Part shown: piece after piece, positions 1,324 through 35,341 of the stretch | Layout of the letters: each line of letters starts with the position of its first letter | Numbering within the stretch: the first letter of the stretch is position 1 | Assembly (NCBI GenBank): GCA_038320555.1 | Contig: JBBQEJ010000005.1 | Coordinates: 5,357 to 69,356, forward strand | Direction of reading: 5' to 3' | Length of the DNA: 64,000 nt | DNA from: Vicinamibacterales bacterium | GTDB taxonomy: Bacteria > Acidobacteriota > Vicinamibacteria > Vicinamibacterales > 2-12-FULL-66-21 | Translations under genes and position numbers: made by a program | The notes under the pieces: model-generated | Database searches by the model: none | What the model saw: only the letters and a program-made list of their open reading frames with translations | What the model was told of the DNA's origin: nothing

Positions 1324-1367
1324 CACGGATGAACACGGACGAACACTGATACACGAATATGCACAGA
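1324..1367. repeat. Tandem word array CACGGA/CACGGA/CACTGA/CACGAA/CACAGA (8-10 bp phase)
   Basis: Read directly in the porin-pstS spacer. It runs into the first ATG of the pstS ORF, which argues for a later pstS start. Confidence 0.6.
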
Positions 1368-1379
1368 GGAATGAATTCT

Positions 1380-2414
1380 ATGAAGCTCGCATTCAGACAC
1401 GTGACGATTGCGGTGGCGGTGGCGGTAGCCGCCGCCGGCGCGACGGTGGCGGCGCAGAAGGTGCAGATTACCGGCGCGGGCGCAACGTTTCCATATCCCA
1501 TTTACTCGAAATGGTTCTCTGAGTACAACAAGCTGCACCCGAACGTCGAGATTAACTATCAGTCGATCGGCTCTGGTGGCGGCGTGAAGCAGCTCACCAG
1601 CCGGACAGTATTCTTCGGCGCCAGCGACTACCCGCTGACCCCTGAGCAACTGCTCGCGGCGCCGGGCAAGATTCTCCACTTCCCGACAGTTCTCGGGGCG
1701 GTGGTGCCGATCTACAACGTCCCGGGCGTCTCGGCCGAGCTCAAATTCACCGGCCCTCTCCTGGCGGACATCTTCCTGGGTAACATCACGAAGTGGAACG
1801 ACAGCCGGATTGCGAAGCTGAACGAGGGTGTGACGCTGCCAAACAGCGACATTACCATCGTGCATCGGTCGGACGGGTCCGGGACGACGTATATCTTCGT
1901 GGATTTCCTGTCGAAAGTCTCGCCGGAATGGAAGAAGCGCGTCGGCGTCGCGGGTTCGGTGAACTGGCCGGTCGGTGTAGGCGCCAAGGGCAATGAGGCC
2001 GTGGCCGGCATGGTCAAGCAGACGCCTGGTTCACTCGGGTACACCGAGCCGGCGTACGCCACTGAAAACAAAATCGCGTTCGGAACAGTGCAGAACGCAG
2101 CGGGCAAATTCATCAAGGCGTCTGCTGCTTCGGTCACGGCCGCTGCCGCCGGCGCGGTGAAACACATGCCTGCAGATTTCCGCGTGTCGATCACGAATCC
2201 GCCCGGCGACGACTCCTATCCCGTCGCCTCGTTTACGTGGCTGCTCATGTACCAGAGTCCGCAGGACAAGGCGCTCGCAAAAACCATGGTGGATTTCACG
2301 AAGTGGGCCTTGAGTGACGGCCAGAAGTACGCCGCCGACCTTGGCTACGCGCCGCTGCCCCAAGCCGTTGTCGACCTCGAGCTGAAGTCCCTGGCCACGA
2401 TTAAAACGCAGTAA
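1380..2414 (+). CDS. pstS: Phosphate ABC transporter substrate-binding protein PstS
   Basis: GAGATFPYPIYSKWFSEYNK and SDGSGTTYIF motifs plus a signal peptide MKLAFRHVTIAVAVAVAAAG. The ORF opens at 1359; the ATG at 1380 has a GAGGA 9 nt upstream. Confidence 0.9.
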   Translation: MKLAFRHVTIAVAVAVAAAGATVAAQKVQITGAGATFPYPIYSKWFSEYNKLHPNVEINYQSIGSGGGVKQLTSRTVFFGASDYPLTPEQLLAAPGKILHFPTVLGAVVPIYNVPGVSAELKFTGPLLADIFLGNITKWNDSRIAKLNEGVTLPNSDITIVHRSDGSGTTYIFVDFLSKVSPEWKKRVGVAGSVNWPVGVGAKGNEAVAGMVKQTPGSLGYTEPAYATENKIAFGTVQNAAGKFIKASAASVTAAAAGAVKHMPADFRVSITNPPGDDSYPVASFTWLLMYQSPQDKALAKTMVDFTKWALSDGQKYAADLGYAPLPQAVVDLELKSLATIKTQ

Positions 2415-2429
2415 GAGCCAAACCTGTCA

Positions 2430-3383
2430 ATGCGCCGCCCCATCGTCGCCCGTCCCGACGAAATATTCTTTCGCGCCGGGACTGGTGCGTTCGCGCTGCT
2501 GCTGATTGTGATCGTCGGCGGCATCGCGTTCGAGCTCGGGCGGCAGTCTTCCCTGTCGATTCACAAATTCGGCTGGCAGTTCTGGCAGACCGACATCTGG
2601 GATCCGGTCGCAGCGGAGTTCGGCGCGCGTCCATTCATCTGGGGCACGCTGTACTCCTCGATCCTCGCGCTGATCATTTCCACCCCCATCGCACTCGGGA
2701 TTGCCATCTTCACCTCTGAGCTCGCGCCGCAGTGGCTGCGCCGGCCGCTCGTGTTCCTGACGGAGCTCCTCGCCGCCATTCCCTCGATTGTCTACGGCCT
2801 CTGGGGCGTCTTCGTGCTCGTACCGCTCGTCCGGCAGTTCGAACTGAACACGCCGGACTGGCTGAAGAGTGTGCCACTGTTCACCGGGCCCCCGCTGGGC
2901 GTCGGCATGCTCTCGGCGGCCATCATCCTGTCGATCATGGTGATCCCCTTCACGTCGTCCGTGGCGCGGGAGGTGTTGAAAGTGGTTCCGCAGGCTCAGC
3001 GTGAAGGCGCGTACGCGCTCGGCGCCACGCGGTGGGAAGCGATTCGGATGGCGCTGTTCTACGCGCGCACGGGCGTCATCGGCGCCATCATGCTCGGGTT
3101 CGGCCGCGCGCTGGGCGAGACCATGGCGGTAACGATGGTGATCGGCAATAACGCGCAGATCACGACGTCGCTCTATGCGCCGCAGTACACGATGGCGGCG
3201 GTCATCGCGAACGAGTTCGCCGAGGCGGCCGACGACATCCATCTGAGCGCGCTCGTCGAGATCGGCCTGGTCCTCTTCGTGATGACGCTCATCATCAACT
3301 CGCTGTCGCGGATGCTGATCTGGTCGATGGCCCGGCAGCGGCGCCCCAGGCCCCTGCATCTCGCGATGAGAAAGGCCGCCTGA
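2430..3383 (+). CDS. pstC: Phosphate ABC transporter permease PstC
   Basis: Polytopic permease with an EAA-like loop (REGAYALGATRWEAI), following pstS. Confidence 0.9.
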   Translation: MRRPIVARPDEIFFRAGTGAFALLLIVIVGGIAFELGRQSSLSIHKFGWQFWQTDIWDPVAAEFGARPFIWGTLYSSILALIISTPIALGIAIFTSELAPQWLRRPLVFLTELLAAIPSIVYGLWGVFVLVPLVRQFELNTPDWLKSVPLFTGPPLGVGMLSAAIILSIMVIPFTSSVAREVLKVVPQAQREGAYALGATRWEAIRMALFYARTGVIGAIMLGFGRALGETMAVTMVIGNNAQITTSLYAPQYTMAAVIANEFAEAADDIHLSALVEIGLVLFVMTLIINSLSRMLIWSMARQRRPRPLHLAMRKAA

Positions 3384-4231
3384 TGCGCGATCTCTGGCGG
3401 CGCGGTCTTTCCTGCGCCGTGTTGATCTTCTGCGGCGCCGCCGTCGTGCTGGCACTCGTCCCGCTCGCCTTCATTCTCTTTTACGTCGTGACCCAGGGCA
3501 TCACGGCGCTCAACCTCGACTTCTTCCGCCATATGCCAGCGCCGGTCGGGGAATCGGGCGGCGGCATGGCAAACGCGATCATCGGTTCCCTCATCGTTAC
3601 AGGGCTCGGCTCGCTGTTTGCCATTCCGGTCGGCGTGTTGAGCGGCCTCTACGCCGCCGAATACCGCGGTACGCGGTTCGCCTCGGCGACGCGCTTCGCT
3701 GCCGACACCTTGAACGGGGTGCCATCCATTGTCATCGGCGTGTTCGCGTACGGAGTGGCCGTGCTGCCGTTCAAGCACTTCTCCGCGCTCGCGGGCGGTC
3801 TCGCGCTCGGCATCATGATGATCCCGCTCATCATGCGGACGACGGAGGAGCTGCTGCTGCTCGTGCCGTCAACATTGCGGGAAGGCGCGCTCGCGCTCGG
3901 GGCTACGCGCGCCCGCGCCGTCTTCACGGTTGTCCTGCCAGCGGCGCTCCCTGGGATCATTACCGGGATTCTGCTCGCGCTCGCGCGCATCGCGGGGGAA
4001 ACGGCGCCGCTCCTCTTCACGTCGCTCAACAACCGCTTCTGGTCGACCGACGTCACGCAACCGATCTCCACGCTGACGGTTCAGGTCTTCGCGTATGCCA
4101 TCGCCCCGTACGAGGATTGGCATCGCCAGGCGTGGGCCGGCGCGCTTGTGCTCGTCACGATCGTGCTGCTCTGTTCGCTGCTGGCGCGGATTGCCACGGC
4201 GCGCATGGAGAAGATGCAGCGCGGCGCGTGA
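3383..4231 (+). CDS. pstA: Phosphate ABC transporter permease PstA
   Basis: Its start overlaps the pstC stop (ATGA). Motif REGALALGATRARAVFTVVLP, polytopic. Confidence 0.9.
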   Translation: MRDLWRRGLSCAVLIFCGAAVVLALVPLAFILFYVVTQGITALNLDFFRHMPAPVGESGGGMANAIIGSLIVTGLGSLFAIPVGVLSGLYAAEYRGTRFASATRFAADTLNGVPSIVIGVFAYGVAVLPFKHFSALAGGLALGIMMIPLIMRTTEELLLLVPSTLREGALALGATRARAVFTVVLPAALPGIITGILLALARIAGETAPLLFTSLNNRFWSTDVTQPISTLTVQVFAYAIAPYEDWHRQAWAGALVLVTIVLLCSLLARIATARMEKMQRGA

Positions 4232-4267: not shown

Positions 4268-5014
4268 CTACTCCACAAAGCGGTAGCCGAGTCCGACCAC
4301 GGTCTCGATCTGGTGCGCGGCGACGCCAAGCTTTGCGCGGAGGCGGCCGACGTGCACGTCAACCGAACGCGTCTCGATGAACCGTTCGTATCCCCATACG
4401 CGCTCGAGTAGCCGATCACGCGACAACACGCGATTGCGGTTGTCGACCAGAAAGCGCAGCAGCTCGAATTCCCTCCGCGTCAGCCGGATGGGCTGTCCGT
4501 CCACCGCGACCGCGACCGCGTCGAAATCGGCTTTCAGATGCTTCCCCTGATACAGGGCCGGGGCCGGGGCGTGCGCATGCCGCCGCAGCAGGGCACGTAC
4601 CCGCGCGGATAGCTCGCGGAGGCTGAAGGGCTTGGTGACGTAGTCGTCGGCGCCCATGTCGAGTCCTGCGACGCGATCCGACTCCGACGTGCGCGCCGTG
4701 AGCATGATGATCGGCACACCGGCGGTCTGGGGCCTCGCGCGCAGGATCCGGCATACCTCTCCACCGCTCAGCACGGGCAGGTTCAAATCCAGGATGATCA
4801 GATCGGGAGGGGCTTCGGTTGCGGCCCGAATCGCGGCGTCGCCGCTCGCGACCAGTTCCACCTGCGCGTCGCCGCTGCGTTCGAGCGTGTGCTTGACGAG
4901 CGTGGCGATGTCGTGCTCGTCCTCCACGACAAGTACGCGTGGCGCCCGACCGATTCCTGATCGATGCGTTCGCGCGGTCCCGACGGCATCTGCGTCATTC
5001 GGAATGAAGGCCAC
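4268..5014 (-). CDS. OmpR/PhoB-family response regulator (receiver + winged helix), no adjacent kinase
   Basis: VLVVEDEHDIA...LIILDLNLPVLSG...GADDYVTKPFSLRELSARV...VGLGYRFVE. The ORF extends to 5158, but the GTG at 5014 is preferred because a promoter-like array lies at 5026-5079. Confidence 0.85.
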   Translation of the reverse strand: MAFIPNDADAVGTARTHRSGIGRAPRVLVVEDEHDIATLVKHTLERSGDAQVELVASGDAAIRAATEAPPDLIILDLNLPVLSGGEVCRILRARPQTAGVPIIMLTARTSESDRVAGLDMGADDYVTKPFSLRELSARVRALLRRHAHAPAPALYQGKHLKADFDAVAVAVDGQPIRLTRREFELLRFLVDNRNRVLSRDRLLERVWGYERFIETRSVDVHVGRLRAKLGVAAHQIETVVGLGYRFVE

Positions 5015-5040
5015 GACTCCGGACGAGCGTAGCAGCCGTC

Positions 5041-5079
5041 GATTTCCATGGTGTGACGCGGGCGTTAACTCTGGGTTAC
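5041..5079 (-). promoter_or_regulatory. Candidate Pho-box-like array upstream of the PhoB-like regulator
   Basis: On the minus strand: GTAACC-N5-TTAACG-N5-GTCACA-N5-GAAATC (11-bp phase). This is followed by N9, TACGCT (5026-5031), then 11 nt to the GTG at 5014. Confidence 0.35.
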
Positions 5080-5170
5080 GAGTAGACGCTAGCCCGAACG
5101 ACAGCTGCCTCAAGACCCAACAAGAGAAGGGGAGCAACCTGCCGGAAAGAAGTCCCAATTTCTTCTACAA

Positions 5171-6589: not shown

Positions 6590-7846
6590 ATGAATGATGT
6601 GCTCGCACTCATCCTTGGGGGCGGACGAGGCACGCGGCTCTTTCCCCTCACGCGCATGCGGTCGAAACCGGCAGTGCCGCTTGGCGGCAAGTATCGCCTC
6701 ATCGACATTCCCATCAGCAACTGCCTCCATGCGGGCCTGAAGCGCATCTTCGTCCTCACGCAGTTCAACTCCGCGTCGCTCAACCGGCACATCGCGCAGA
6801 CGTACCGGCTCGACATGTTCTCGGACGGTTTCGTCGAAGTGCTCGCCGCGGAACAGACGCCGGAGAGTCTGGACTGGTTCCAGGGAACCGCCGACGCGGT
6901 CAGGCAGGCGGCGCGCCACTTCGCCGGGTACGACGCCGAGCACTATCTCATCCTGGCAGGCGACCATCTGTATCGCATGGATTTCTGCGAAATGATCGAC
7001 GCGCACATCGAAAGCGGGGCCGACATCACCATTGCGGCACAGCCCGTCAGTCCAGACGATGCGACCGAGATGGGGATTTTTCTGTTCGACGAGCGCGGGC
7101 AGATTGGCGGGTTCGAGGAGAAGCCGGCTCCGGCGCGGCTGGCCGAGATGGGCACCAGTATTCCGCGCGGCTCGGCTGCGGGAGGCGTGACGCCGGAAAA
7201 ACCGTTCGTCGCGTCCATGGGGATTTACGTCTTCTCGCGCGACATGCTGCTCGAAATCCTCCAGGAACCGGGCATCGACTTCGGCAAGGAGATCATCCCG
7301 AAGGCGCTCGGCCGCTACCAGGTCAATCCGTACATCTTCCGCGGGTACTGGGCGGACGTCGGCACGATCGACGCGTTCTATCATGCCAATATCCAGCTCA
7401 CGCACCGCGGCGCGCCGTTCGACTTCTTCCATCCGCGGCGGCCGATCTACACGCACCCGCGGTTTCTGCCGGGGACACGCGCGTACTCCTGCCACGTCGA
7501 TACATCAATCGTGGCGGAGGGGTGTTATCTGGATCAATGCGAGATCACTGATTCCATCGTGGGCATCCGGACGCACGTCGAGAACGGCGCCCGCATCACC
7601 CGATCGATTCTTCTTGGGGCGGATTATTACGAAGAGGAAGGGGCAGCCGGCGCCATTCCGCTCGGCATCGGCCGAAATGTCGTCCTGGACCGGGTCATCG
7701 TCGATAAGAACGCCCGCATCGCTGACGGAGTGCGGCTCGTCAACGATGCGAGCCTCGATCACGCGGACGGCGAGGGCTATTGCATCCGCAACGGAATCAT
7801 CATCGTGCCCAAGGGAGCCGAGGTGAAGGCGGGCGTCACGGTGTAG
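6590..7846 (+). CDS. glgC: Glucose-1-phosphate adenylyltransferase
   Basis: LILGGGRGTRLFPLTRMRSKPAVPLGGKYRLIDIPISNC with a C-terminal left-handed beta-helix region. Confidence 0.9.
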   Translation: MNDVLALILGGGRGTRLFPLTRMRSKPAVPLGGKYRLIDIPISNCLHAGLKRIFVLTQFNSASLNRHIAQTYRLDMFSDGFVEVLAAEQTPESLDWFQGTADAVRQAARHFAGYDAEHYLILAGDHLYRMDFCEMIDAHIESGADITIAAQPVSPDDATEMGIFLFDERGQIGGFEEKPAPARLAEMGTSIPRGSAAGGVTPEKPFVASMGIYVFSRDMLLEILQEPGIDFGKEIIPKALGRYQVNPYIFRGYWADVGTIDAFYHANIQLTHRGAPFDFFHPRRPIYTHPRFLPGTRAYSCHVDTSIVAEGCYLDQCEITDSIVGIRTHVENGARITRSILLGADYYEEEGAAGAIPLGIGRNVVLDRVIVDKNARIADGVRLVNDASLDHADGEGYCIRNGIIIVPKGAEVKAGVTV

Positions 7847-7889: not shown

Positions 7890-8438
7890 TCACCCGGCGA
7901 GCTCCGCCTTCACCTTGCGTCCGGCAGCCTGCGCGGCGACGGTGTCGTAGTGATGCGTGCCGGTACTGTGATGTCCGATCCGTTCGTACAACGCGATCAG
8001 ACTGGCCTCGTCGCGGACGTCTGGGGATTCGGCCACTTCGAGAGCGTGCCGCAACTCGTGTCCGACGAGCGCGATGCTGTCGTTGGATCCGGCATGTCCA
8101 CCCACCTGGATGCGCAGGTACCGATGGCCTTCGGGACCGGCCGCCAGCAGGAGCCGTCCGGCAATCGAGGCGGGCATCAGCCGTCCGCTTTCGATGTAGA
8201 CGATCACGTCGCTCTTATCGAGCGCGAGCATTAGATGTGCAAACGTCCCTGAGCGCCTCATCCCCTCGGCAAGGATTGCCGCCATAGTTGCGTCCACGGC
8301 ACGTACGTGCCGCGTCGGGTCGCTCATGAACGCTTTCACCTGCGCAGCAGTCAGCGGCGCAATCGCGCTCGCCGGCGCCGCGTCGCGCGCGACGCCGATC
8401 GCCATCGCACAGACGAGAACAACAGGCAGAACTCTCAT
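7890..8438 (-). CDS. Secreted hypothetical protein with an HExxH motif (possible metalloprotease-like)
   Basis: Signal peptide MRVLPVVLVCAMAIGVA and motif VGHELRHALE. Start taken at the internal ATG 8438. Confidence 0.5.
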   Translation of the reverse strand: MRVLPVVLVCAMAIGVARDAAPASAIAPLTAAQVKAFMSDPTRHVRAVDATMAAILAEGMRRSGTFAHLMLALDKSDVIVYIESGRLMPASIAGRLLLAAGPEGHRYLRIQVGGHAGSNDSIALVGHELRHALEVAESPDVRDEASLIALYERIGHHSTGTHHYDTVAAQAAGRKVKAELAG

Positions 8439-8608
8439 CGGGACCTCCGTTGAAAACGGTGGCCCCTCATCCGGGGTCGTGCGGGCTGCCGGCCTCCACT
8501 CCGGCAACTCGGTGGGCTTAGACGGTGCTCGAGAGCAGGAGGTTTATTGTTGTGCGGTCGCGGGACGCGTGGGACAAATCAGGGACGAGCGGAGTGTCGA
8601 GACTCCTG

Positions 8609-9109
8609 TCACCCGATCTCCCGCAACATGCGCGCTGGAACGAACCAGCGCAGTTGTCCGATCCCCTTGGGCGGGAAGACCTCGAACTCAATACAGCAGA
8701 TCGCGCCTTTTTTGAATTCGAGCGGCGTTCGCGCGCCGACCAGACGCGCCGCAAGCTCGCCGATGTTCGGCTCGTGCCCGACGAGCGCGATGCGCCCCTT
8801 GCGCATATGCTTGGCGAGTTCCTGAATCACCGCGGCGGGCGTGCCGGCTGGCGCCAGGGCATCGCTCACCGATACCGACGGCTTCGACTTCAAGGCTTCG
8901 GCGAACACGTCCGCCGTCTGCCGCGCGCGGACGAGCGGGCTCACCACGATGTGATCGAATCCGATGTCGAGCGCGTCGAGTGCCTTGGCTTCCTTGCGGA
9001 GCCGGTTGATCCCGCGGTTCGTCAATGGCCGTTTGGAGTCGTCCGGATAGTCCTCGCCGCGTTCGGCGGCAACGCCGTGACGAATGAGGTACAGCTGCAG
9101 GGTGGCCAT
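8609..9109 (-). CDS. sixA: Phosphohistidine phosphatase SixA (histidine phosphatase superfamily)
   Basis: LYLIRHGVA...RPLTNRG...SPLVRARQTA...LVGHEPN. Confidence 0.8.
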   Translation of the reverse strand: MATLQLYLIRHGVAAERGEDYPDDSKRPLTNRGINRLRKEAKALDALDIGFDHIVVSPLVRARQTADVFAEALKSKPSVSVSDALAPAGTPAAVIQELAKHMRKGRIALVGHEPNIGELAARLVGARTPLEFKKGAICCIEFEVFPPKGIGQLRWFVPARMLREIG

Positions 9110-9112
9110 CGA

Positions 9113-10072
9113 TCAGCGATCGCTCGCCACGGTGCGCGGTTCGGCCTGCCGCGACAGCGTCATCTTGATTGCGCGCGTGCGCCGCGGCGCGTGCGCAAGC
9201 TGCGGCACGATGACCTTGCGGACCGCGAGCGCGGCCTCACGAAGCGCGGGCGCCGTGGAGACGTACCGTCCGTGCAGAAGCCGGCATCGATCCTCGATGT
9301 GCCGCGCGAGATCCTCGAGCGCCACGCGGGACGGCGCACGCTCGGATCGCGGTTGGGTCTGCACCTCCGCGACGTGCGTCTGCAGGACCTGGAGATCGTG
9401 CAGTTTGCCGAGCATGTCCTGCGCGCGCTTGATTGTGCGCACGTGCGGGGCAGCCTGCCTGAGGCCGCTGTCGGCAGCCAGCTCGAGGCCGTACCGGAGT
9501 TTCTTCGCGGCGATGCGCACCGCGTGCAGCCGCTCCGGCGCGTACATGTGGCCGGCCTCGTCCATCGCGAGCGTGAGCCGGCGGGATCGCGACAGCAGAC
9601 GCGCCCCCAACGCTTTCCGCCAGGGTTCAGCCTTCGCTTCGGTGAGCGCCGCGCCGACCGACGACAGCCGGCGATCGAGCTTGTCCACGTCGACACTCTC
9701 GAGCCGCTCGAGCATCAACTTGCGGCGGCTCTCGCGCTCTTTCATGACGCGCGCGCGAACGTCTTCCACCGCGGTTCGGGACACTTGCGGCGAGCGCGCC
9801 AGCTCGTCGAGCAACCGCATCGTGACATCGAGTTCTCGGACCGTGCCGAGCGCGCGGGTCAGCCGCCTGATCTTCCGCCGGGCCTTGCCCGCCTTGCTGC
9901 CTTTGAGGCCGGTGGACAGCACCGGGACCGCTTCCCGAAGCCGTCGCGACGTGACCCGGGCCTGATGGACCCCGCGATCGTCGCCCGACACCGCCTGGGG
10001 CAGGTGGCGCTTCAGCGCCCGGGCGAGGCGCTGGAGTAGCAGAGTCGTGACACGGGGCGTTCGAGTGTTCAT
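9113..10072 (-). CDS. CHAD domain-containing protein
   Basis: GVHQARVTSRRLREA and HAVRIAAKKLRYGLELA helical repeats. Start taken at MNTRTPRV (10072). Confidence 0.75.
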   Translation of the reverse strand: MNTRTPRVTTLLLQRLARALKRHLPQAVSGDDRGVHQARVTSRRLREAVPVLSTGLKGSKAGKARRKIRRLTRALGTVRELDVTMRLLDELARSPQVSRTAVEDVRARVMKERESRRKLMLERLESVDVDKLDRRLSSVGAALTEAKAEPWRKALGARLLSRSRRLTLAMDEAGHMYAPERLHAVRIAAKKLRYGLELAADSGLRQAAPHVRTIKRAQDMLGKLHDLQVLQTHVAEVQTQPRSERAPSRVALEDLARHIEDRCRLLHGRYVSTAPALREAALAVRKVIVPQLAHAPRRTRAIKMTLSRQAEPRTVASDR

Positions 10073-10177
10073 GGTAGGATGGCGACCGGCCGGACCTTTC
10101 CTTTGCGCTGAAGTGCGCAAGTATATATCGACCGTGTAACGTGCAAGACCCGGACCCGTTGAGCTGCCCTCCCCTGC

Positions 10178-11845
10178 ATGCGCATTGCCGCCATTGACAT
10201 CGGCACCAATTCCATCCACATGATCGTGGTCAAGGTGCGACCGGATCTGTCATTCGAGGTCATTGACCGCGAAAAAGACATGGTCCGGCTGGGGGCCGGC
10301 GGGCTCGACGGCCGCAACCTCACGGCTTCTGCCATGTCGGCGGGCCTGCAAACACTGGCAAAATTCAAGCGTCTGGCCGAATCCAACAAGGTCGACGAGA
10401 TCGTCGCGGCGGCGACAAGTGCCACCCGGGAAGCAGAAAACGGCGGCGACTTCATTGCTGAGGTAGCCCGTCAAACCGGCATTCGAATCAAGGTCATCTC
10501 GGGCACGGAAGAGGCTCGGCTCATCCATCTGGCGGCCGGCTATGGCGTGGATGTGGGCGGCAGCACAGCCGCAGTAATAGACATCGGCGGGGGAAGCGTC
10601 GAAATCACCCTCGGAACCGCGACGCATCTGACACTCGGCAAGAGCTTCAAAACCGGGGTCATTCGTCTGACCGAGCACTTCGTCAAAACCGACCCGCTGT
10701 CGGCCCGTGACCAACGGCGGCTCGTCAAACACCTGAATCGCACGATGGGCGGCCATCTCGAGCAAATCGAAACGAGCGGTTTCGATCGCGTCATCGGCAC
10801 GTCCGGGACCATCCTGAGCCTCGGGGCACTCGCCTTGACCGACGACGCCGGACCGCCCGAAGACCTGCGCAATCAGCGCGTGAGCGCCAAGTCGCTGCGC
10901 CGCCTCCGCAAGCAGCTCGTCGCCGCCGACATCGAAGAGCGTCTGCACATGCCGGGCCTCGATCCACGACGGGCCGATCTCAGCGTCGCGGGCTCGGTGC
11001 TCCTCGACACGATTCTTCGCGGCCTCGGTGCCGAGGACATCACGCTCTGCGATCTGGCACTCAGGGAAGGCCTCGTCCTCGATTACATCCACCGCAACAG
11101 CGCGCGCATCCGTAAGGTCGAGCGCTATCCCGACGTCCGCCGCCGCAGCGTCGTCGAGCTCGGCGAGCGTTGCGGATACTGGTCGGAACACGCACAACAG
11201 GTGGCGCGGCTCGCGCTGAGCGTCTTCGATCAGACACGCAGCGTGCACGGCCTCGCCGATCGCGAACGGGAGTGGCTCGAGTACGCCGCCCTTCTGCACG
11301 ACGTCGGGGTGCACATCAGCTACGATCGCCATCACCGCCACTCGTACTATCTGATCAAGAATGGTGATCTGCGCGGCTTCGAACCGCGAGAGATCGAGGT
11401 GATCGCGCTCGTCACGCGATATCACCGTCAGGCGACCCCGAAAAAATCGCATGAGGGGTACGGTGATCTGAACAGCTCGCTGCGCGGGACCGTGCGGATG
11501 CTGTCAGCGATTGTCAGGCTTGCCGAGGGCCTCGATCGGAGCCACGCCCAGGCGCTCGCCGGGATTGACCTCTTTCCTCGCGGCGACGACTACCTCGCCC
11601 GGCTTCGCGCGAATGGCGATGCGGAGCTGGAGTTGTGGGCCGCACATCGTCACGTGGCGCCGCTCGAGCGGGAGCTCGACTTGCCGATTCGCTTCGACGT
11701 CTCCGGCGCCGAGTACAAGGAACACGCACCTAATGTTGAACAACCTGACCACGCCCCACGAGTATCCCGGAAAGCTGTTCGTGGTCGAGGGAATCGACGG
11801 CTCCGGCAAGACGACCCAGCTGGCCCTGCTCGCGAAATGGCTTAG
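10178..11845 (+). CDS. ppx: Exopolyphosphatase Ppx/GppA with a C-terminal HD domain
   Basis: MRIAAIDIGTNSIHMIVV, IDIGGGSVE, LLHDVGVHISYDRHHRHSYYLI. The last roughly 38 codons overlap the next gene and have low third-position GC. Confidence 0.9.
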   Translation: MRIAAIDIGTNSIHMIVVKVRPDLSFEVIDREKDMVRLGAGGLDGRNLTASAMSAGLQTLAKFKRLAESNKVDEIVAAATSATREAENGGDFIAEVARQTGIRIKVISGTEEARLIHLAAGYGVDVGGSTAAVIDIGGGSVEITLGTATHLTLGKSFKTGVIRLTEHFVKTDPLSARDQRRLVKHLNRTMGGHLEQIETSGFDRVIGTSGTILSLGALALTDDAGPPEDLRNQRVSAKSLRRLRKQLVAADIEERLHMPGLDPRRADLSVAGSVLLDTILRGLGAEDITLCDLALREGLVLDYIHRNSARIRKVERYPDVRRRSVVELGERCGYWSEHAQQVARLALSVFDQTRSVHGLADREREWLEYAALLHDVGVHISYDRHHRHSYYLIKNGDLRGFEPREIEVIALVTRYHRQATPKKSHEGYGDLNSSLRGTVRMLSAIVRLAEGLDRSHAQALAGIDLFPRGDDYLARLRANGDAELELWAAHRHVAPLERELDLPIRFDVSGAEYKEHAPNVEQPDHAPRVSRKAVRGRGNRRLRQDDPAGPAREMA

Positions 11846-12434
11846 CGCAGCCGGCCATCCGGTCGTCCTCACCGAGTGGAACTCCTCGGCGCTGGTCAAA
11901 GCGGCCACCAAGACCGGGAAGAAGAAGAACTCGCTGACGCCGATGACGTTCAGCCTGCTGCACGCGACCGATTTCGCCGATCGGCTGCTCTACAACATCG
12001 TGCCGCCGCTCAAGGCCGGGATGATCGTGCTCGCGGATCGTTACGCCTACACCGCGTTCGCCCGCGACGCCGCGCGCGGCGTCGACCGCCGGTGGGTGCG
12101 CGAGCTGTACAGTTTCGCAGTCAAGCCCGACATGGCCATTTACTTTCGTGTGCCGATCGAGGTCTCGACCGATCGCCTGATGGCGCGTCGCGTCAAGCTG
12201 AAGTTCTATGAGGCGGGGCTGGACATGGGCTGGAGCTCGAACGCCCTCGAAAGCTTCCGGATCTTCCAGCGCAAGGTACTTGACGAGTACGATCGCGTTG
12301 TCGAGGAATTCGGACTGAGCGTCGTCAATGCGGTCGGCAGCATCACCGAGCAACAGCGGACGTTCCGCAAGCTCGTGACCCAGCATCTGGATATCAAGGA
12401 GACCGATGAACAGCTCGACGAGCAGCTTGCCTGA
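11733..12434 (+). CDS. Thymidylate-kinase-like P-loop kinase, paralog 1 (canonical Walker A)
   Basis: FVVEGIDGSGKTTQ and LADRYAYTAFA motifs. It lacks the canonical Tmk REPGGT and AYQ motifs. Confidence 0.75.
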   Translation: MLNNLTTPHEYPGKLFVVEGIDGSGKTTQLALLAKWLSAAGHPVVLTEWNSSALVKAATKTGKKKNSLTPMTFSLLHATDFADRLLYNIVPPLKAGMIVLADRYAYTAFARDAARGVDRRWVRELYSFAVKPDMAIYFRVPIEVSTDRLMARRVKLKFYEAGLDMGWSSNALESFRIFQRKVLDEYDRVVEEFGLSVVNAVGSITEQQRTFRKLVTQHLDIKETDEQLDEQLA

Positions 12435-13188
12435 GACGGCGGACAGCGGCGTTCGCCCGGGCAGTTACTACGGCAACGGCATTCCCTACCTGCCAATCGA
12501 CGGGTATCCGGGGAAGATTATTGCCATCGAAGGGACCGACGGCGTTGGACGATCCACGCAGATTCGCCTGCTGCGCGAGTGGCTGGAGGTGCAGGGCTAC
12601 GGAGTCATCGAAACCGGATGGACCCGCTCGGAACTGATGCAGCCGACGATCGAGCTTGCCAAAGCCAGCAACACCTTGAACAAACTCACATTCGTGCTGC
12701 TCTATGCCACGGATTTCGCCGACCGCCTCGAAAAGGAGATCATCCCGGCGCTCAAGGCAGGGTTCATCGTTTTGTCGGATCGCTACGTCTATACCGCGAT
12801 GGCGCGGGCCGGCGTCCGCGGCGTGGACCGCACGTGGATGCGCAACCTGTACGGATTCGCCATCGCCCCGCACCAGGTCTTCTATCTGAAAATCGACGAG
12901 AAGACGCTGATACGGCGCGTGCTGCAGTCGCGCGGGATGGATTACTGGGAGTCCGGCATGGACATGAAGCTCGGCGATGACATCTACGAGAGCTTCCGTG
13001 CCTACCAGCGTTCGCTGTTGCGGGAATACGCGTCCATGGCCGACGAATTCGGCTTCAGAGTGCTCGACGCGAGGCGCAAGATAAGCGTCATCCAGGACGA
13101 GCTCCGACGCCAGATCGGCGCCTTTCTCGCCGAATCCGATACGTCGTCGGCAGCCCGCATCGACGGCAGCCCAGAGGGGCAGCGCTAG
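12406..13188 (+). CDS. Thymidylate-kinase-like P-loop protein, paralog 2 (Walker A Lys replaced by Arg)
   Basis: IAIEGTDGVGRSTQ and LSDRYVYTAMA. Clearly paralogous to the preceding gene (ATDFADRL, LKAG.IVL.DRY.YTA) and overlaps it by 29 nt. Confidence 0.75.
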   Translation: MNSSTSSLPETADSGVRPGSYYGNGIPYLPIDGYPGKIIAIEGTDGVGRSTQIRLLREWLEVQGYGVIETGWTRSELMQPTIELAKASNTLNKLTFVLLYATDFADRLEKEIIPALKAGFIVLSDRYVYTAMARAGVRGVDRTWMRNLYGFAIAPHQVFYLKIDEKTLIRRVLQSRGMDYWESGMDMKLGDDIYESFRAYQRSLLREYASMADEFGFRVLDARRKISVIQDELRRQIGAFLAESDTSSAARIDGSPEGQR

Positions 13189-13260
13189 AGGTCTGACCCC
13201 ACTCCCCCGATCGTGGTTCGCAGAGCCGCGGGCCGCCAGCCGCGACAGAATCTCCCGCCC

Positions 13261-13299
13261 GTTACACCGAATTTACAGCCAGGAAATCAGGTCGAAACG
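13261..13299 (+). promoter_or_regulatory. Candidate Pho-box-like array upstream of pstB
   Basis: GTTACA-N5-TTTACA-N5-GAAATC-N5-GAAACG (11-bp phase). This is followed by N9, TACGAT (13309-13314), then 12 nt to the ATG at 13327. Confidence 0.4.
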
Positions 13300-13326
13300 C
13301 CCGCCCGGTACGATCCTCATGCCGGC

Positions 13327-14157
13327 ATGTCAGCTGTCCAGACGCCTTCCACGAAACTTTCAGTGACGCCGGAAGCACCCCGCGAGCCGGTGCCAGACCG
13401 GGCCGCGCTCATCGACGTCCAGGACCTCAGTTTCTATTACGGCGCGAAGCGGGCGCTCGAGCACATCACGATTGGCATCCAGCCGAATGTGGTGACGGCG
13501 TTCATCGGGCCGTCTGGCTGCGGCAAGAGCACGTTCCTGCGCACGCTCAACCGGATGAACGACATCATCGCCGGCACGCGGGTGGAGGGGAAGGTGTTGA
13601 TCGACGGGGACGACATCTATGGCCCTGGAAGCGACGTCGTGCGCCTCAGGCGGCGCGTGGGCATGGTCTTTCAGAAATCCAACCCATTTCCAAAATCGAT
13701 CTTCGAGAACGTCGCCTACGGATTGCGGATCAACGGGCTCGCGCGCGGACGCGCGGCGCTCCAGGCCAGGGTCGAGGAGAGCCTGAAGGCGGCCGCGATC
13801 TGGGACGAAGTCAAGGATCGGCTTCACGAATCCGCGATTGCCCTGTCGGGCGGCCAGCAGCAACGGTTGTGCATCGCCCGTGCCCTGGCGATCCAGCCGG
13901 AGATTCTGCTGATGGACGAACCGGCATCGGCGCTCGATCCGATCGCGACGCAGCGTATCGAGGAGCTCGTGTACCAGCTCAAATCCCGGTATACGATCGT
14001 CATCGTGACGCACAACATGCAGCAGGCCGCGCGCGTCTCCGATCGCACGGCGTTCTTCTGGCTCGGCAAGCTCGTCGAATACGCGCCGACGGAGCGCATC
14101 TTCACGAATCCGGCTGAGAAGCTCACGGAGGATTACGTGACCGGGCGGTTTGGCTAG
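13327..14157 (+). CDS. pstB: Phosphate ABC transporter ATP-binding protein PstB
   Basis: [36 protein letters not shown]. The ORF opens at 13213 (GTG); the ATG at 13327 gives the typical length. Confidence 0.9.
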
Positions 14158-14167
14158 TGCGATTCGA

Positions 14168-14202
14168 CTCGCGGCTCGCGGTTCGCGGCCCGCGGTTTTC
14201 GT
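14168..14202. repeat. Tandem heptamer array (NTCGCGG) x4-5
   Basis: ctcgcgg ctcgcgg ttcgcgg cccgcgg ttttcgt. It is the reverse-complement vocabulary of the array at 43327-43368. A second pair, actaggg attaggg, lies at 14239-14252. Confidence 0.75.
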
Positions 14203-14259
14203 TATTATTTGTGGCTTCCGTCTTTAGGCGGAAGGAGACTAGGGATTAGGGATACAACG

Positions 14260-14940
14260 GTGCCCGATACGACGGTTCGTCATTTCCAGGCCGACCTCGA
14301 ACAGCTCAAGACGCGCCTTCTCGAGATGGGCGGGCTGGCCGAGGATCGCGTGCGCGCGGCGGTTGATGGCCTCGTGCGGCGCGACGCGGAAGCGGTCGCC
14401 CGCGTGATCCAGGGCGACCGGCCGATCAACCAGCTGCACATCGAAATCGACAACCGCTGCTTTACCTTGCTCGCCCTGCATCAGCCGATGGCTGTCGATC
14501 TCCGCGCGATCGTGTCAGCCGTGAAAATCAACACGGATCTCGAGCGGGTCGGCGACCTCGCGGTCAACATCGCCGAAGCGGTGGTCCGCTACATGCGCCA
14601 CCCGCCGGTCAAGGAGCTCATCGACATTCCCCGCATGGCCTCCATCGCGCAGACCATGCTCCGCGACGCGCTCGACGCGTACGTCCGGCGCGACACGCCG
14701 CTCGCGCAGAGCGTGCTCGATGCCGACGACGGGCTGGACTCGTTGAAAACGCAGGTGTTCCGCGAGCTGCTGACCTTCATGCTGCAGGATCCCACCACCA
14801 TCGAGCCCGCGCTCGACCTGATCCTGGTGTCGCGGCACCTCGAACGCATCGGCGACCACGCCACCAACATCGCCGAAGACGTGATCTTCATGGTGCTGGC
14901 CAAGGATGTCCGTCACCACATCAACGAGCCCGGGATGTGA
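14260..14940 (+). CDS. phoU: Phosphate signalling complex protein PhoU
   Basis: Two PhoU repeats (INQLHIEIDNRC...DLERVGDLAVNIAE; ...HLERIGDHATNIAEDV). The ORF opens at TTG 14209; GTG 14260 is preferred. Confidence 0.85.
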   Translation: MPDTTVRHFQADLEQLKTRLLEMGGLAEDRVRAAVDGLVRRDAEAVARVIQGDRPINQLHIEIDNRCFTLLALHQPMAVDLRAIVSAVKINTDLERVGDLAVNIAEAVVRYMRHPPVKELIDIPRMASIAQTMLRDALDAYVRRDTPLAQSVLDADDGLDSLKTQVFRELLTFMLQDPTTIEPALDLILVSRHLERIGDHATNIAEDVIFMVLAKDVRHHINEPGM

Positions 14941-15195: not shown

Positions 15196-15357
15196 TGTCG
15201 CGTCTCCGAAGTCCTGTTAACATCGAGAGCGGCGATGCGCCCGGCGCGCAAGGCGCGAGGAGGGCGCATACCGGGTGTAAGCACCCGACGAGCAACGCAG
15301 CGCCCCGGGATGCAGCGCCGGCCGAATGTAACGGACTTCGGAGACACGACACCAGAG

Positions 15358-16644
15358 ATGGCCGACACGCTCACCATCACCGACAACCGCACGGGCAGGA
15401 AATACGAGATCCCGATCCAGGACGGAACCATCCGGGCGATCGACCTGCGCCAGATCAAAGTCACGCCCGAGGAATTCGGGATGATGACCTACGACCCGGC
15501 TTTCACGAACACCGCCGCCTGCCGCAGCCGGATCACCTACATCGATGGCGACCACGGCGTGCTCATGTATCGCGGTTACCCCATCGAACAGCTGGCCGAG
15601 CACAGCGACTTCCTTGAAACCGCCTATCTCATTCTCTTCGGCGAACTGCCGACCACTGGGCAGCTCGAACATTGGTCAGAGGACATTACCCGGCATACGA
15701 TGCTCCACGAGAACATCAAGAAGTTTCTCGAGGGGTTCCGCTATGACGCGCACCCGATGGGGATGTTCCTGAGCGCGGTCGGCGCGCTGTCGACGTTCTA
15801 CCCCGCCGCGAAGAACATCTCCGATGAGTCGTCGCGGCGTCTGCAGACCGTCCGGCTCATCGCCAAGGTGCCGAGCCTCGCCGCGTACGCGTTTCGTCAC
15901 ACGATCGGCCGTCCGTACGTGCTTCCCGACAACGAGCTGAGCTTCTCGGGGAACTTCCTGAACATGCTGTTCAAGATGACGGAGCCCCGATACAAGCCGC
16001 ACCCCGTCCTCGAACGCGCGCTGGACGTGCTCTTCATTCTGCACGCCGACCACGAGCAGAACTGCAGCACGCACGTCATGCGCGGCATCGGCAGCTAACA
16101 CGCCGATCCGTATTCATCGCTGGCCGGGGCGGCGGCGGCGCTCTACGGTCCTCTCCACGGCGGCGCGAACGAGGCCGTCCTGAAGATGCTGACCGAGATC
16201 GGATCCATCGAGCACGTCCCGGCATTCATCAAGCGCGTCAAAGGCGGCGAAGGCCGTCTCATGGGCTTCGGGCACCGCGTGTACAAGTTTTACGACCCGC
16301 GGGCCACGATTATCAAGCGCATCGCGGACCTGGTCTTCGAAGTGACCGGCAGAAACCCGCTCCTCAACATCGCGCTCGAGCTCGAGCGGATCGCGCTGTC
16401 GGACGAGTACTTCATCTCGCGGAAGCTGTATCCGAACGTTGACTTTTACTCCGGGCTGATCTACCAGGCGATGGGCTTCCCGGTCTCGATGTTCCCGGTG
16501 CTCTTTGCCATCCCCCGCACCGCCGGCTGGATCGCGCAGTGGGAGGAGATGCTCACGGACCCCGAGCAGAAGATCGCCAGGCCGCGGCAGATCTATATTG
16601 GGCCGGCCAGACGGGATTACATCAGCCGCGACAAGAGACGATGA
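15358..16644 (+). pseudogene. gltA: Citrate synthase, single reading frame interrupted by an in-frame TAA at 16096-16098
   Basis: ORFs 15235-16098 and 16186-16644 are in the same frame. Read-through gives [51 protein letters not shown], colinear with the conserved citrate synthase core. Confidence 0.85.
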
Positions 16645-25803: not shown

Positions 25804-26796
25804 GCTCTTCGTACGTGCGCGGATGTCGTGCGAGACCTGCGCGAGCTCGATCATGATGCGCTCGAACTCCTTCGCGTACTCGGCGGCGGACAGAAACGTC
25901 TTGCGGATTTTCAGATCCTCGACCTCCGCTTCGAGCGTGGTCTTGCGTTGCAGGAGCCTGAGTAAGACTTCATCGGTCGGTGCGGCCCCCGGCAACGACT
26001 CATCCAGATAGGTCCGGCTCGCGTACGACCCGTCGTCGCCCGGGCTGGAAGCTTCGTTACCGATGCCGTCGCCGTTGTCATCGACGAGCGCACGCTCTGT
26101 CGAGAGCTGGCCGCGCTGCTGGTAGTACCGCCGTACGCCCGCACTGGCGGCGGCAAACGCCTCCCAGACCGAGATCCGACCATTCTTGTCGAGGTCGGCC
26201 GCGGTGTCGGCGAGCGAACGGATGAAATACTCAGGAAAGATCGTGTCGAAGCGCTGGGCCGGCGAATCGGTCGCGGTGACGACAACTCGGCGAGGCGCCG
26301 CAAGCCGTTCGAGAAACGGAAAGCTTGCGGAGGCGGCGTTGACAATGACAAGGCGGCCCGGAACGGGCCGCAGGAGCGCGGCCCATTCTGCCGACTCCAA
26401 ATCACGGCCCACGAGGTTGAACTTCGAGTCGGTACCGTCGAACGTGCCGTGACCGATCAGCACGACCAGCAGCACGTCCTCGCGCGTCATACGCGCGGCG
26501 ATCGATCCGAGGACCCGCCGCACATTGTCAGCCGTCGACGCGGACGCGGGCTGGATCGTGTCCGACAGTATGGTGACCAGCGCGGAGTCGAACTTCAGGT
26601 TGTCGACGAGCGATGTCGACAGGTCTGTAGTCCAGCGATTGTACTGCGTGACGTATTCACGGCCACCGGAGGCTCCAGATACGATGAGGGCAAAGCGCTG
26701 CTCGGCTGCTGCCACGGGAACAGGGAAGGAAACGAGCGCTGCCGCGAGACACGCGACGACCCTCACCGCAGCCCCCATCGGCGTCGCAGCAACCAC
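25801..26796 (-). CDS. Secreted hypothetical protein, caspase/legumain-fold-like but without a cysteine; EF-hand-like loop
   Basis: Signal peptide, LLVVLIGHGTF and RLVIVNAASASF strands. DLDKNGRISVWE (26161-26196) fits the 12-residue EF-hand loop. The only Cys is in the signal peptide. Confidence 0.45.
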   Translation of the reverse strand: MVAATPMGAAVRVVACLAAALVSFPVPVAAAEQRFALIVSGASGGREYVTQYNRWTTDLSTSLVDNLKFDSALVTILSDTIQPASASTADNVRRVLGSIAARMTREDVLLVVLIGHGTFDGTDSKFNLVGRDLESAEWAALLRPVPGRLVIVNAASASFPFLERLAAPRRVVVTATDSPAQRFDTIFPEYFIRSLADTAADLDKNGRISVWEAFAAASAGVRRYYQQRGQLSTERALVDDNGDGIGNEASSPGDDGSYASRTYLDESLPGAAPTDEVLLRLLQRKTTLEAEVEDLKIRKTFLSAAEYAKEFERIMIELAQVSHDIRARTKS

Positions 26797-31900: not shown

Positions 31901-32447
31901 TCGCGGTTCCGGCAGCCCGTTCGAAAAAGGGCTGGCTCGCAGCGAGCGCCATCAGAAGAAGCGCAACACCGAAGGCCGCCCACAGCGCACCTCGACGAAG
32001 TTCCGGGTTCGTCAAAATTTCTGCCGGTTGGATCGCACACAGCCTCGTGACCGCGTCGTCGAGCATGAGCGGAAGGAACGCCGCGGATCCGGCGCCTGCG
32101 GGCCGTTCGGCCGCGTCGATCGCGCTGACGAGCGAATCGTCCAGGTCGCGCCACGACAGAGCTTTCGCGCGCTCCTCGATGAACCGGGCCACCCGGCGAT
32201 CGGAGGGAGGCCCCGGCGTCAGCCACGTCGCGAGGGCCGCCACGGCCAGTGCAAGTACACCGGTCGCAGCGGCAAGAACAAGGAGCGGAATTCCCTGCAC
32301 TCGGAAGATGTACTCAACGATCGCGCCTACGACGAGCAGGATTGCCAATACCGCCGATGCGCGCGCCATGGTCCGCAGCGCGACAAGCCACGTCCAGCGC
32401 CTCCGGACGACCGCGATGAGCGAGCGCAGCTCCCTGTGTGGATCCAT
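28974..32447 (-). CDS. Large membrane-anchored coiled-coil protein (DUF4175-like)
   Basis: N-terminal TM helices, an Ig-like middle region, and a long R/Q/A/E-rich coiled-coil C-terminal half. It sits at the position typical of DUF4175 in Bat-like clusters. Confidence 0.5.
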   Translation of the reverse strand: MDPHRELRSLIAVVRRRWTWLVALRTMARASAVLAILLVVGAIVEYIFRVQGIPLLVLAAATGVLALAVAALATWLTPGPPSDRRVARFIEERAKALSWRDLDDSLVSAIDAAERPAGAGSAAFLPLMLDDAVTRLCAIQPAEILTNPELRRGALWAAFGVALLLMALAASQPFFERAAGTARLRFFPGSVSVEVLPGSVRVPAGSSLRIRASLHGSKGVLTRFTPDLTVSANGEPRTLAMTLKGDAFEFTIGSVDRTFSYVVSAGSARSPRYTVTALTAPRVERIDLHYVYPSFAGLAPRDEQDGGDIYAPAGTRVRLRIHTDKPIARGELALGRSPAVSLEAAGERTVEAELLLARNDSYRIRLAGGEGLKSAGDAEYFIRLMDDRPPDVRILRPSADQQITPLEEVPIEARADDDYGIGTFELVYSVAGGPEHVVPFERITGTNVQKIGTRVLPAEDLGVKPGDVVTYYARARDVGRGKRSTEATSDIFFLEVKPFNGEFVAAESQAGGGGSDQQIESLIQAQKEIISSTWNVERRSQGGRSTDDVKAIAAAQAELKSRAEQQLMPRTRRGRAPAPERQAPAAPQPRRSTGDPIATAVDAMGKALQQLTTERTKEALTHEMAALNGLLQAQAEVRRRQVTQQANGAGSGGSNRAEQDLSALFDKELQRQQRTNYETRAAVETRPDGGDSRESALDRIRDLARRQEDLSRRQAELAQATLATDEMKRQLEKLTREQTALREQAEELLRPHGDPNASSRGRSGQPPSGAGGASANQEQEALRGASDQMRSAASNLRLDDPRGAAQNGQRAAEQLRRLERQVRGGNVGASAGADVKLEAQQITREQGRIAAEANRLDRNTGASGADARKRLADEKVRLAARVQDLTRSALQASQGLKGPDATALGNAARDLEREHVSDRMRETAKEMRNQGAAPNGTVAREQELARTLEQIADKLGASSSAEARQLTDQLDQARAIRDRVQRAEQQLRAAEGRERDGSDPNGSSMDEGRRAQPVRGRPGPGSTDTGTADGRQGSGRQGSDVQRLRDEYQRELQRAQAALRRLSAGQPRSGLEGFTPEEQQFSRSAPGTEAFKQDRTGWESLRRNLDTELEKYEASVSNRLSRRGPDDRFSAGGSDRVPDAYRQLIAKYFESLAKKKP

Positions 32448-34279: not shown

Positions 34280-34282
34280 GCG

Positions 34283-34427
34283 CCTCAAAACTCACACTTC
34301 AGCGCTCAAACAGGAGTTACCGGAGGAACTGGAGTCCTCATGTGTGTGTCTTTTGTCTTCTCAACTAAGGACGACGTCTTTTGAAGAATTTCTCCCGTTC
34401 CCGTCGTTCCTCCTGTTCGAAGGCGGA
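34283..34427. repeat. Low-GC word-repeat spacer inside the MoxR cluster
   Basis: ctcaaaa ctcacac ... ctcaaac; tgtcttt tgtcttc; ctcccgttcccgtcgttcctcctgttcgaagg. It is the only long gap in an otherwise overlapping gene chain. Confidence 0.65.
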
Positions 34428-35339: not shown

Positions 35340-35341
35340 GG

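Follow-up and report, generated by a model that had tools for sequence, protein, structure and literature searches.

A stretch of 64,000 nucleotides from a Vicinamibacterales bacterium (contig JBBQEJ010000005.1; the whole stretch is called the window below) carries, directly after the exopolyphosphatase gene ppx and on the same strand, two overlapping genes of the thymidylate kinase (Tmk) fold which very probably encode the two subunits of a polyphosphate kinase 3 (PPK3) in a Vicinamibacterales-like acidobacterium. Paralog 1 (11733 (ATG) to 12434 (TGA), plus strand, 233 residues) is the putative catalytic subunit, cPPK3, with the Walker A motif GIDGSGKTTQ, and paralog 2 (12406 (ATG) to 13188 (TAG), plus strand, 260 residues) is the presumed regulatory subunit, rPPK3, with the Walker A motif GTDGVGRSTQ. 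The ppx open reading frame (ORF) overlaps paralog 1 by 113 nt, and paralog 1 overlaps paralog 2 by 29 nt. A first-pass annotation of the sequence had described these two P-loop ORFs, their overlaps with ppx and with each other and both Walker A motifs, and in all of this, coordinates included, it was exact. It had also proposed that the pair is a polyphosphate- or phosphate-linked kinase rather than a housekeeping Tmk, a proposal now backed by homology to the PPK3 of Sulfolobus acidocaldarius (SaPPK3), by the fold and by gene order (PMC12995831).

The PPK3 family was published between 2024 and 2026 (bioRxiv 10.1101/2024.08.28.610084; Hofmann et al., J Biol Chem 2026, PMC12995831), so a characterized example does exist, whereas the author of the first-pass annotation knew of none. 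The ppx operon of S. acidocaldarius encodes SixA, Ppx, the two proteins Saci_2019 and Saci_2020, both annotated as dTMP kinases, and a CHAD protein (PMC12995831). Saci_2019 (cPPK3) forms polyphosphate (polyP) from ATP and, far more efficiently, ATP from ADP and polyP, whereas Saci_2020 (rPPK3) is inactive alone and brings about a roughly 10-fold gain in activity at a 1:1 ratio (PMC12995831). The complex is a heterotetramer (a2b2), and about 10% of the activity remains when cPPK3 acts without its partner (PMC12995831). No dTDP was formed from dTMP with either protein, and Saci_0893 is the true Tmk of that organism (PMC12995831). The inactivity of rPPK3 was ascribed to replacement of the DRX Arg, and a positively charged cleft was reported for cPPK3 and none for rPPK3 (PMC12995831). 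STK_15430 of Sulfurisphaera tokodaii was recognized as a cPPK3 ortholog and bacterial homologs were predicted to be PPK3 as well (PMC12995831). The family had been presented as largely archaeal, with 'a few taxonomically scattered bacteria'; the preprint names Acidobacteriota among the 'few bacterial homologues' (bioRxiv 10.1101/2024.08.28.610084). The window pair is a soil-bacterial member of this family. Since the biochemistry of SaPPK3 matches what had been proposed from the sequence alone, that hypothesis is essentially the published mechanism. The idea of an active subunit paired with a degenerate one stands as regards a heteromer, but 'obligate heterodimer' was too strong, since SaPPK3 is heterotetrameric and its catalytic subunit retains about a tenth of the activity by itself.

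Over 214 residues the two paralogs have 43% identity (E 9e-63), and they have YPGK[LI], ATDFADRL, LKAG.IVL.DRY.YTA and RGVDR.W.R.LY.FA in common. Both match Pfam Thymidylate_kin (E 1.6e-23 and 3.9e-22) and fall just under the cut-off of the NCBIfam dTMP-kinase equivalog TIGR00041 (82.8 and 80.4 bits; cut-off 83.25). Alignment to the T. thermophilus Tmk revealed that the dTMP-binding REPGG motif after strand 2 is replaced by TEWNSS in paralog 1 and TGWTRS in paralog 2, and that the dTMP-binding AYQ motif after DRY is replaced by YTAFARD and YTAMARA, respectively, in agreement with the first-pass reading that both canonical motifs are missing. Neither paralog matched Pfam PPK2 (PF03976) at E values up to 0.01. 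The fold kinship with PPK2 kinases that had been suggested is correct insofar as both are P-loop kinases, but the PPK3 family descends from Tmk and not from PPK2.

Searches against proteins of known structure separated the pair from true Tmks. The best PDB match of paralog 1 in a phmmer search was STK_15430 (2plr/5h70), over the full length and with E 3.3e-52, whereas true Tmks gave 6e-16 or weaker; for paralog 2 the corresponding values were 9e-44 and about 1e-15. The AlphaFold2 model of paralog 2 had a mean pLDDT of 83.7, with about 25 N-terminal residues predicted to be disordered, and its top eight Foldseek matches were the eight chains of STK_15430 (TM score 0.89-0.92, root-mean-square deviation about 2 A), with E 1e-18 compared to about 1e-11 for canonical Tmks.

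The assignment of each paralog to a subunit type was analyzed using hidden Markov models (HMMs) trained on sequences from other phyla (74 c and 69 r), with the six closest relatives left out. Paralog 1 scored 343 bits with the c-HMM and 240 bits with the r-HMM, whereas paralog 2 scored 260 and 327 bits, respectively. The models also sorted the two SaPPK3 subunits as expected, Saci_2019 scoring 275 (c) and 218 (r) bits and Saci_2020 scoring 100 (c) and 134 (r) bits. Paralog 1 shares 48% identity with Saci_2019. The identity between paralog 2 and Saci_2020 is 29%, and paralog 2 aligns to Saci_2020 with 97 bits compared to 74 bits for paralog 1. An unrooted neighbor-joining analysis separated all c-type sequences from the others in 158 of 200 bootstraps. 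By sequence, paralog 1 is placed in the cPPK3 clade with Saci_2019 and STK_15430, apart from canonical Tmk, and paralog 2 is grouped with the r-subunits.

The residues of the active site and its surroundings differ between the two subunits. Paralog 1 has an intact P-loop, the DRY motif and a basic patch formed by K56, K60, K63, K64 and K157, of which K60, K63, K64 and K157 are shared by Saci_2019. The positions of K56, K60, K64 and K157 (paralog 1 numbering) carry a basic residue in 81% or more of the c sequences and in no more than 29% of the r sequences, and the core has a median isoelectric point of 8.95 in c and 5.50 in r. The predicted basic polyP cleft in c, not in r, fits the published picture of SaPPK3. 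Paralog 2 has the Walker A Lys replaced by Arg, keeps DRY and the lid Arg, and carries an Arg specific to the r type (R74), conserved in 87% of r sequences.

The Walker A Lys position is occupied by Arg in 76 of the 78 r genes of related loci, with the consensus G-[TPA]-D-G-x-G-R-[ST]-T (GADGSGRSTQ in locus L049, for example), and the same pattern was found among 50%-identity cluster representatives, 305 of which match paralog 2 at E <=1e-30. Among the 78 r genes, Lys is kept (GTDGSGKSTQ) only in L060 (8699-9328) and L070 (8699-9325). L060 comes from an uncultured bacterium and L070 from a Gastranaerophilales metagenome-assembled genome (MAG); the r gene of the Melainabacteria locus L037 has Arg. 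Within Sulfolobales, Arg is again present in r of S. tokodaii (GIEGSGRTAH) and of M. sedula (GSEGSGRTYH), whereas Saci_2020 has Lys (GIMSSGKTTH). The Walker A Arg is a general hallmark of the r-subunit and not a local accident. On the other hand, the DRX Arg is changed to Gly (ADGY) in all three Sulfolobales r-subunits examined (L081 5621-6250, L083 3626-4240 and L084 3624-4253), whereas DRY is kept in paralog 2 and in 78 of 78 r genes of related loci. As a general statement on rPPK3, the published replacement of the DRX Arg fits Sulfolobales only, in the sample examined, and the lesion in paralog 2 is instead the change of the Walker A Lys to Arg.

Related loci were sought by scanning one genome per species with the cPPK3 alignment, and the best 80 of 557 matches were verified; the 557 genome matches are not a count of PPK3 genomes, since one of the search patterns (EG.DG.GK) matches canonical Tmks too. 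The 80 verified loci have 52-87% identity to paralog 1 and come from more than 12 phyla. The closest (80-87%) belong to Vicinamibacterales-type Acidobacteriota MAGs, four of which (L001, L002, L004 and L005) have exactly the gene order of the window. The other bacterial loci are from other Acidobacteriota, Nitrospirota, Planctomycetota, Chloroflexota, Bacteroidota, Verrucomicrobiota, Melainabacteria, Armatimonadota, Thermodesulfobacteriota, Binatia and Hydrogenedentota, and the archaeal ones from Nitrososphaerales, Thermoplasmata and Methanoliparum. Of the 80 loci, 76 have an r-type gene directly 3' of the c-type gene. Two of the other four are contigs that are cut short or yield no r match, and two are from Planctomycetota, with r upstream of ppx.

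Neighboring genes within 8 kb were counted in 59 loci, those with flanks of 3 kb or more on both sides. Ppx was present in 36 of these loci, SixA in 22, CHAD in 14, and PstB and PhoU in nine. The first-pass annotation had based its functional proposal on the placement of the pair between ppx and pstB-phoU; in relatives the linkage to ppx is general, whereas that to pstB-phoU is lineage-specific. SixA adjoins ppx in S. acidocaldarius (L081), S. tokodaii and M. sedula, and the set of ppx, SixA and CHAD accompanies PPK3 in these three loci and in the window. In addition, c and r occur fused in a single chain of 460 residues in Alicyclobacillaceae (P0124), and c, r and a Ppx domain III/HD part are fused in three single chains of 650-696 residues (P0146, P0176 and P0200). 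These natural fusions indirectly support a physical association of c and r. The P-loops of fused r domains are degenerate in other ways (GSDYSGHY, GAHHAGVT, GVPGSGTS and GADKHATA), suggesting that catalysis by r is generally dispensable.

A Lys-type cPPK3-like domain was also observed in large multidomain proteins. P0214 (794 residues), from the eukaryote Ancoracysta twista (EukProt), combines SPX, Tmk-like and DUF2252 domains; P0213 and P0216 combine MFS, Tmk-like and APH/DUF2252 domains, and P0221 and P0249 an inorganic pyrophosphatase (InPase) with a Tmk-like domain. A eukaryotic SPX-fused PPK3-like kinase could matter for polyP synthesis where VTC4 is absent.

The mechanism proposed for the window pair takes the reaction, the preference for ATP formation and the activation by the second subunit from the Sulfolobus enzyme. 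Paralog 1 would bind ATP or ADP in its intact P-loop and hold the polyP chain in its basic cleft, at the site that binds dTMP in a true Tmk, and would thereby catalyze the reversible reaction ATP + polyP(n) <-> ADP + polyP(n+1). Paralog 2, which has lost the Walker A Lys and most of the basic cleft, is probably no kinase itself and most likely assembles with cPPK3, as a2b2 by analogy, thereby activating it; because it keeps DRY and the other catalytic residues, its inactivity is one that we infer. Ppx, encoded directly upstream, would hydrolyze polyP, and SixA and CHAD would be the usual companions of a polyP locus. The genes continue into pstB-phoU without a predicted terminator, suggesting joint control with phosphate uptake, and joint expression with ppx and pstB-phoU would tie the synthesis and mobilization of polyP to phosphate uptake and Pho signaling.

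Several observations weigh against this interpretation as a whole or against parts of it. PPK3 activity is known from the archaeal SaPPK3 only, and its r-subunit, Saci_2020, the only one characterized, is just 29% identical to paralog 2 and is disabled differently, keeping the Walker A Lys while the DRX Arg is changed to Gly and several other catalytic residues are lost. The r-subunits from outside Sulfolobales (n=69) are at least 97% conserved at E42, D45, D103, D125-R126-Y127, R134 and R138, as well as at the lid R171, E182-x-G184-x-D186 and Q201. No polyP or phosphate gene was detected within 8 kb, at the sensitivity used, in 22 of the 59 loci. Finally, a single r clade including the Sulfolobales r-subunits was recovered in only 65 of 200 neighbor-joining bootstraps, which we attribute to attraction of the long Sulfolobales r branch to the outgroup. 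A rooted neighbor-joining tree with a partial T. thermophilus Tmk as outgroup made the r-subunits a grade, with Saci_2020 beside the outgroup; it was taken as a case of long-branch attraction and set aside. The orthology of the Sulfolobales and bacterial r-subunits is consequently based on HMM scores, gene order and the shared Walker A Arg, and not on the tree.

The retention of catalytic positions in paralog 2 and in nearly all r-subunits from outside Sulfolobales indicates that selection maintains the site, and to call them an 'inactive scaffold' may be an oversimplification. Outside Sulfolobales, rPPK3 may be a ligand-binding sensor instead of a dead scaffold, which we regard as possible but rather doubtful. 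With a nearly intact site in which Lys is specifically changed to Arg, binding of ATP, ADP or polyP ends without turnover would be expected, and such binding could set the direction or rate of cPPK3 according to energy charge or polyP availability; Saci_2020, being atypical and heavily decayed, could not have revealed such a role. The same conservation could be read to mean that both subunits are catalytic, the Arg-type r being a second phosphotransferase, acting for example on nucleoside mono- or diphosphates or on polyP ends, or a slow enzyme. The r-subunits from outside Sulfolobales keep every catalytic residue except the Walker A Lys, the replacement in 76 of 78 loci is specifically by Arg, unlike random decay, Lys is even kept in L060 and L070, and only the strongly decayed Saci_2020 has been assayed (PMC12995831). 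An active r is nevertheless unlikely. Its polyP cleft has lost the basic character seen in c and the protein is acidic, the P-loops of fused r domains are degenerate in several unrelated ways, and the DRX Arg is lost as well in Sulfolobales, so that catalysis by r appears dispensable in several lineages. In P-loop NTPases, replacement of the Walker A Lys by Arg usually leaves nucleotide binding intact and lowers phosphoryl transfer by orders of magnitude, as in RecA K72R, which also disfavors an active r.

That the paralogs are real, if unusual, dTMP kinases, as databases label them, is very improbable. Their Pfam matches and their scores, 0.5-3 bits from the NCBIfam dTMP-kinase cut-off, are compatible with this reading, all close homologs are named 'dTMP kinase' at source, and the first publication on STK_15430 treated it as a Tmk (Biswas et al. 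2017, as cited in PMC12995831). However, the dTMP-binding motifs are absent from both paralogs, dTDP was formed from dTMP by Saci_0893 and by neither SaPPK3 subunit (PMC12995831), and the Tmk study of STK_15430, as the preprint presents it, followed ADP formation only (bioRxiv 10.1101/2024.08.28.610084). Moreover, a Tmk would give no rationale for the conserved pairing, for ppx, SixA and CHAD as neighbors or for the fusions to Ppx domains. A PPK3 composed of a catalytic paralog 1 and a regulatory paralog 2 is the explanation that we favor.

The genes around the pair form what can be regarded as a phosphate island, comprising pstSCA, a PhoB-like regulator, SixA, CHAD, ppx, the PPK3 pair, pstB and phoU. 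The ppx gene (10178-11845, plus strand) encodes a Ppx/GppA-family exopolyphosphatase of 555 residues (Pfam Ppx-GppA 2.1e-55, Ppx-GppA_III 8.5e-31 and HD) which scores 249.9 bits against TIGR03706, under the cut-off of 307. On its upstream side and divergent from it are the genes of a SixA-type phosphohistidine phosphatase (8609-9109, minus strand; TIGR00249 sixA 95.8 bits, cut-off 74.5) and of a CHAD-domain protein of a polyP-granule-associated family (9113-10219, minus strand; Pfam CHAD 2e-33). The CHAD match begins at residue 62 of this ORF, whose true start is probably the ATG at 10072. Downstream of the pair are pstB, encoding the phosphate ABC importer ATPase (13213-14157, plus strand; TIGR00972 399.6 bits, cut-off 343.2), and phoU, encoding the phosphate signaling complex protein (14209-14940, plus strand; TIGR02135 225.9 bits, cut-off 130.25). 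The TIGR00972 match begins at residue 67 of the pstB ORF, and the start is likely the ATG near 13327. The remaining transport genes are pstS (1359-2414, plus strand; Pfam PBP_like_2), pstC (2430-3383, plus strand; Pfam BPD_transp_1) and pstA (3383-4231, plus strand; Pfam BPD_transp_1), and they are followed by the gene of the PhoB-like OmpR-family response regulator (4268-5158, minus strand; Pfam Response_reg and Trans_reg_C), glgC (6590-7846) and an ORF of unknown function (7890-8507), the last two also lying between pstSCA and pstB-phoU. pstSCA (1359-4231) and pstB-phoU (13213-14940) are about 9 kb apart, with the PhoB-like regulator, glgC, SixA, CHAD, ppx and the PPK3 pair between them; since this gap holds the PPK3 genes, the polyP module lies inside a split pst operon. 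The 64-kb window contains no third Tmk-like ORF and no PPK1 or PPK2 domain.

Codon-position GC content backs the plus-strand genes, the long antisense ORFs being artefacts of high GC, and Shine-Dalgarno-like sequences are found 4 nt 5' of the paralog 2 ATG (AAGGAG) and 10 nt 5' of the paralog 1 ATG (AAGGAA). A terminator scan gave no terminator-like site from ppx to pstB, nor between rPPK3 and pstB in particular, a result of little weight since the scan gave fewer sites than shuffled sequence; promoter/terminator and Rfam scans yielded nothing informative. From this arrangement we infer that ppx, cPPK3 and rPPK3, and apparently also pstB-phoU, are co-transcribed. Read in another frame, the last 113 nt of ppx (11733-11845) contain the cPPK3 start codon and the codons for its P-loop. 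The Vicinamibacterales loci L002 and L005 have a similarly long overlap (about 8001-8110), which is absent in Nitrospirota, where the genes are separated by a gap (L010, for example), and in Sulfolobus (4 nt).

Two further features of the window lie outside the phosphate genes. Citrate synthase is encoded in two plus-strand ORFs, 15235-16098 and 16186-16644, which match positions 2-194 and 225-357 of Pfam Citrate_synt; the break from 16098 to 16186 points to a frameshift, a pseudogene or an assembly error. A run of genes resembling the Bat/MoxR type and unrelated to PPK3 occupies 26763-36700 on the minus strand, encoding a MoxR-like AAA_3 ATPase (35342-36700), a DUF58 protein (34428-35339), a BatA/VWA protein (32447-34288), a DUF4175-like protein of 1157 residues (28974-32447) and a GATase1-like protein (26763-28973).

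Bacterial PPK3 members had already been predicted, and what is new here is that the c/r pair is far commoner in bacteria than 'a few' and that the Walker A Arg is a general hallmark of r, the sole characterized r being atypical. The pair occurs in many lineages of soil, sediment and wastewater, often beside ppx or pst genes. Both subunits are named 'dTMP kinase' or 'thymidylate kinase' wherever the source names them, and each subunit query returned at least 8000 candidates in the databases at E <=1e-10, indicating that mis-annotation is widespread in soil metagenomes, in which thousands of proteins of both subunits carry the label 'dTMP kinase'. Surveys of polyP metabolism that seek just ppk1 and ppk2 therefore miss the PPK3 route, and miss it in organisms that dominate soils and phosphorus-removal systems. 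The Arg-type P-loop of the second subunit offers a simple signature for finding PPK3 operons and a target for mutagenesis aimed at the mode of action of rPPK3.

The window locus resembles that of SaPPK3 in that both have two overlapping Tmk-fold paralogs directly after ppx, the catalytic gene ahead of the degenerate one, with SixA and CHAD genes present. The two c-subunits, 48% identical, agree in P-loop, DRY, lid and basic patch and both are without the dTMP motifs. SaPPK3 is archaeal, whereas the window pair is bacterial (Acidobacteriota) and mesophilic, and its r-subunit has the Walker A Arg with DRY and lid intact, whereas Saci_2020 has the Walker A Lys, DGY and several other losses. Unlike that of S. 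acidocaldarius, the window operon runs on into pstB-phoU, its SixA and CHAD genes are divergent instead of co-directional, and the overlap of ppx and c is 113 nt instead of 4 nt. The best solved relative of both paralogs is STK_15430 (ST1543; PDB 2plr, 4nzy, 4rzx and 5h70, deposited as 'dTMP kinase'), the cPPK3 ortholog of paralog 1 and an archaeal protein about 20-50 residues shorter than the window paralogs, whose partner r (L083 3626-4240) has GIEGSGRTAH but ADGY.

Canonical Tmk (TIGR00041; T. thermophilus 5x7j and E. coli 4tmk) shares the fold, the P-loop, DRY/DRX and the lid Arg with the paralogs, and Tmk, not PPK2, is the evolutionary source of the PPK3 family. It has REPGG and AYQ and is a homodimer encoded by a single gene, whereas the window encodes a c/r pair without both motifs. 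Two-domain class II PPK2, represented by PA3455 of P. aeruginosa, is like PPK3 in joining an active P-loop kinase module to an inactive duplicate that serves oligomerization (PMC12995831), and in the phosphorylation of nucleotides driven by polyP. It belongs, however, to another P-loop kinase family, with its modules fused in one chain, and the placement of its sites for nucleotide and for polyP is the reverse of that in PPK3.

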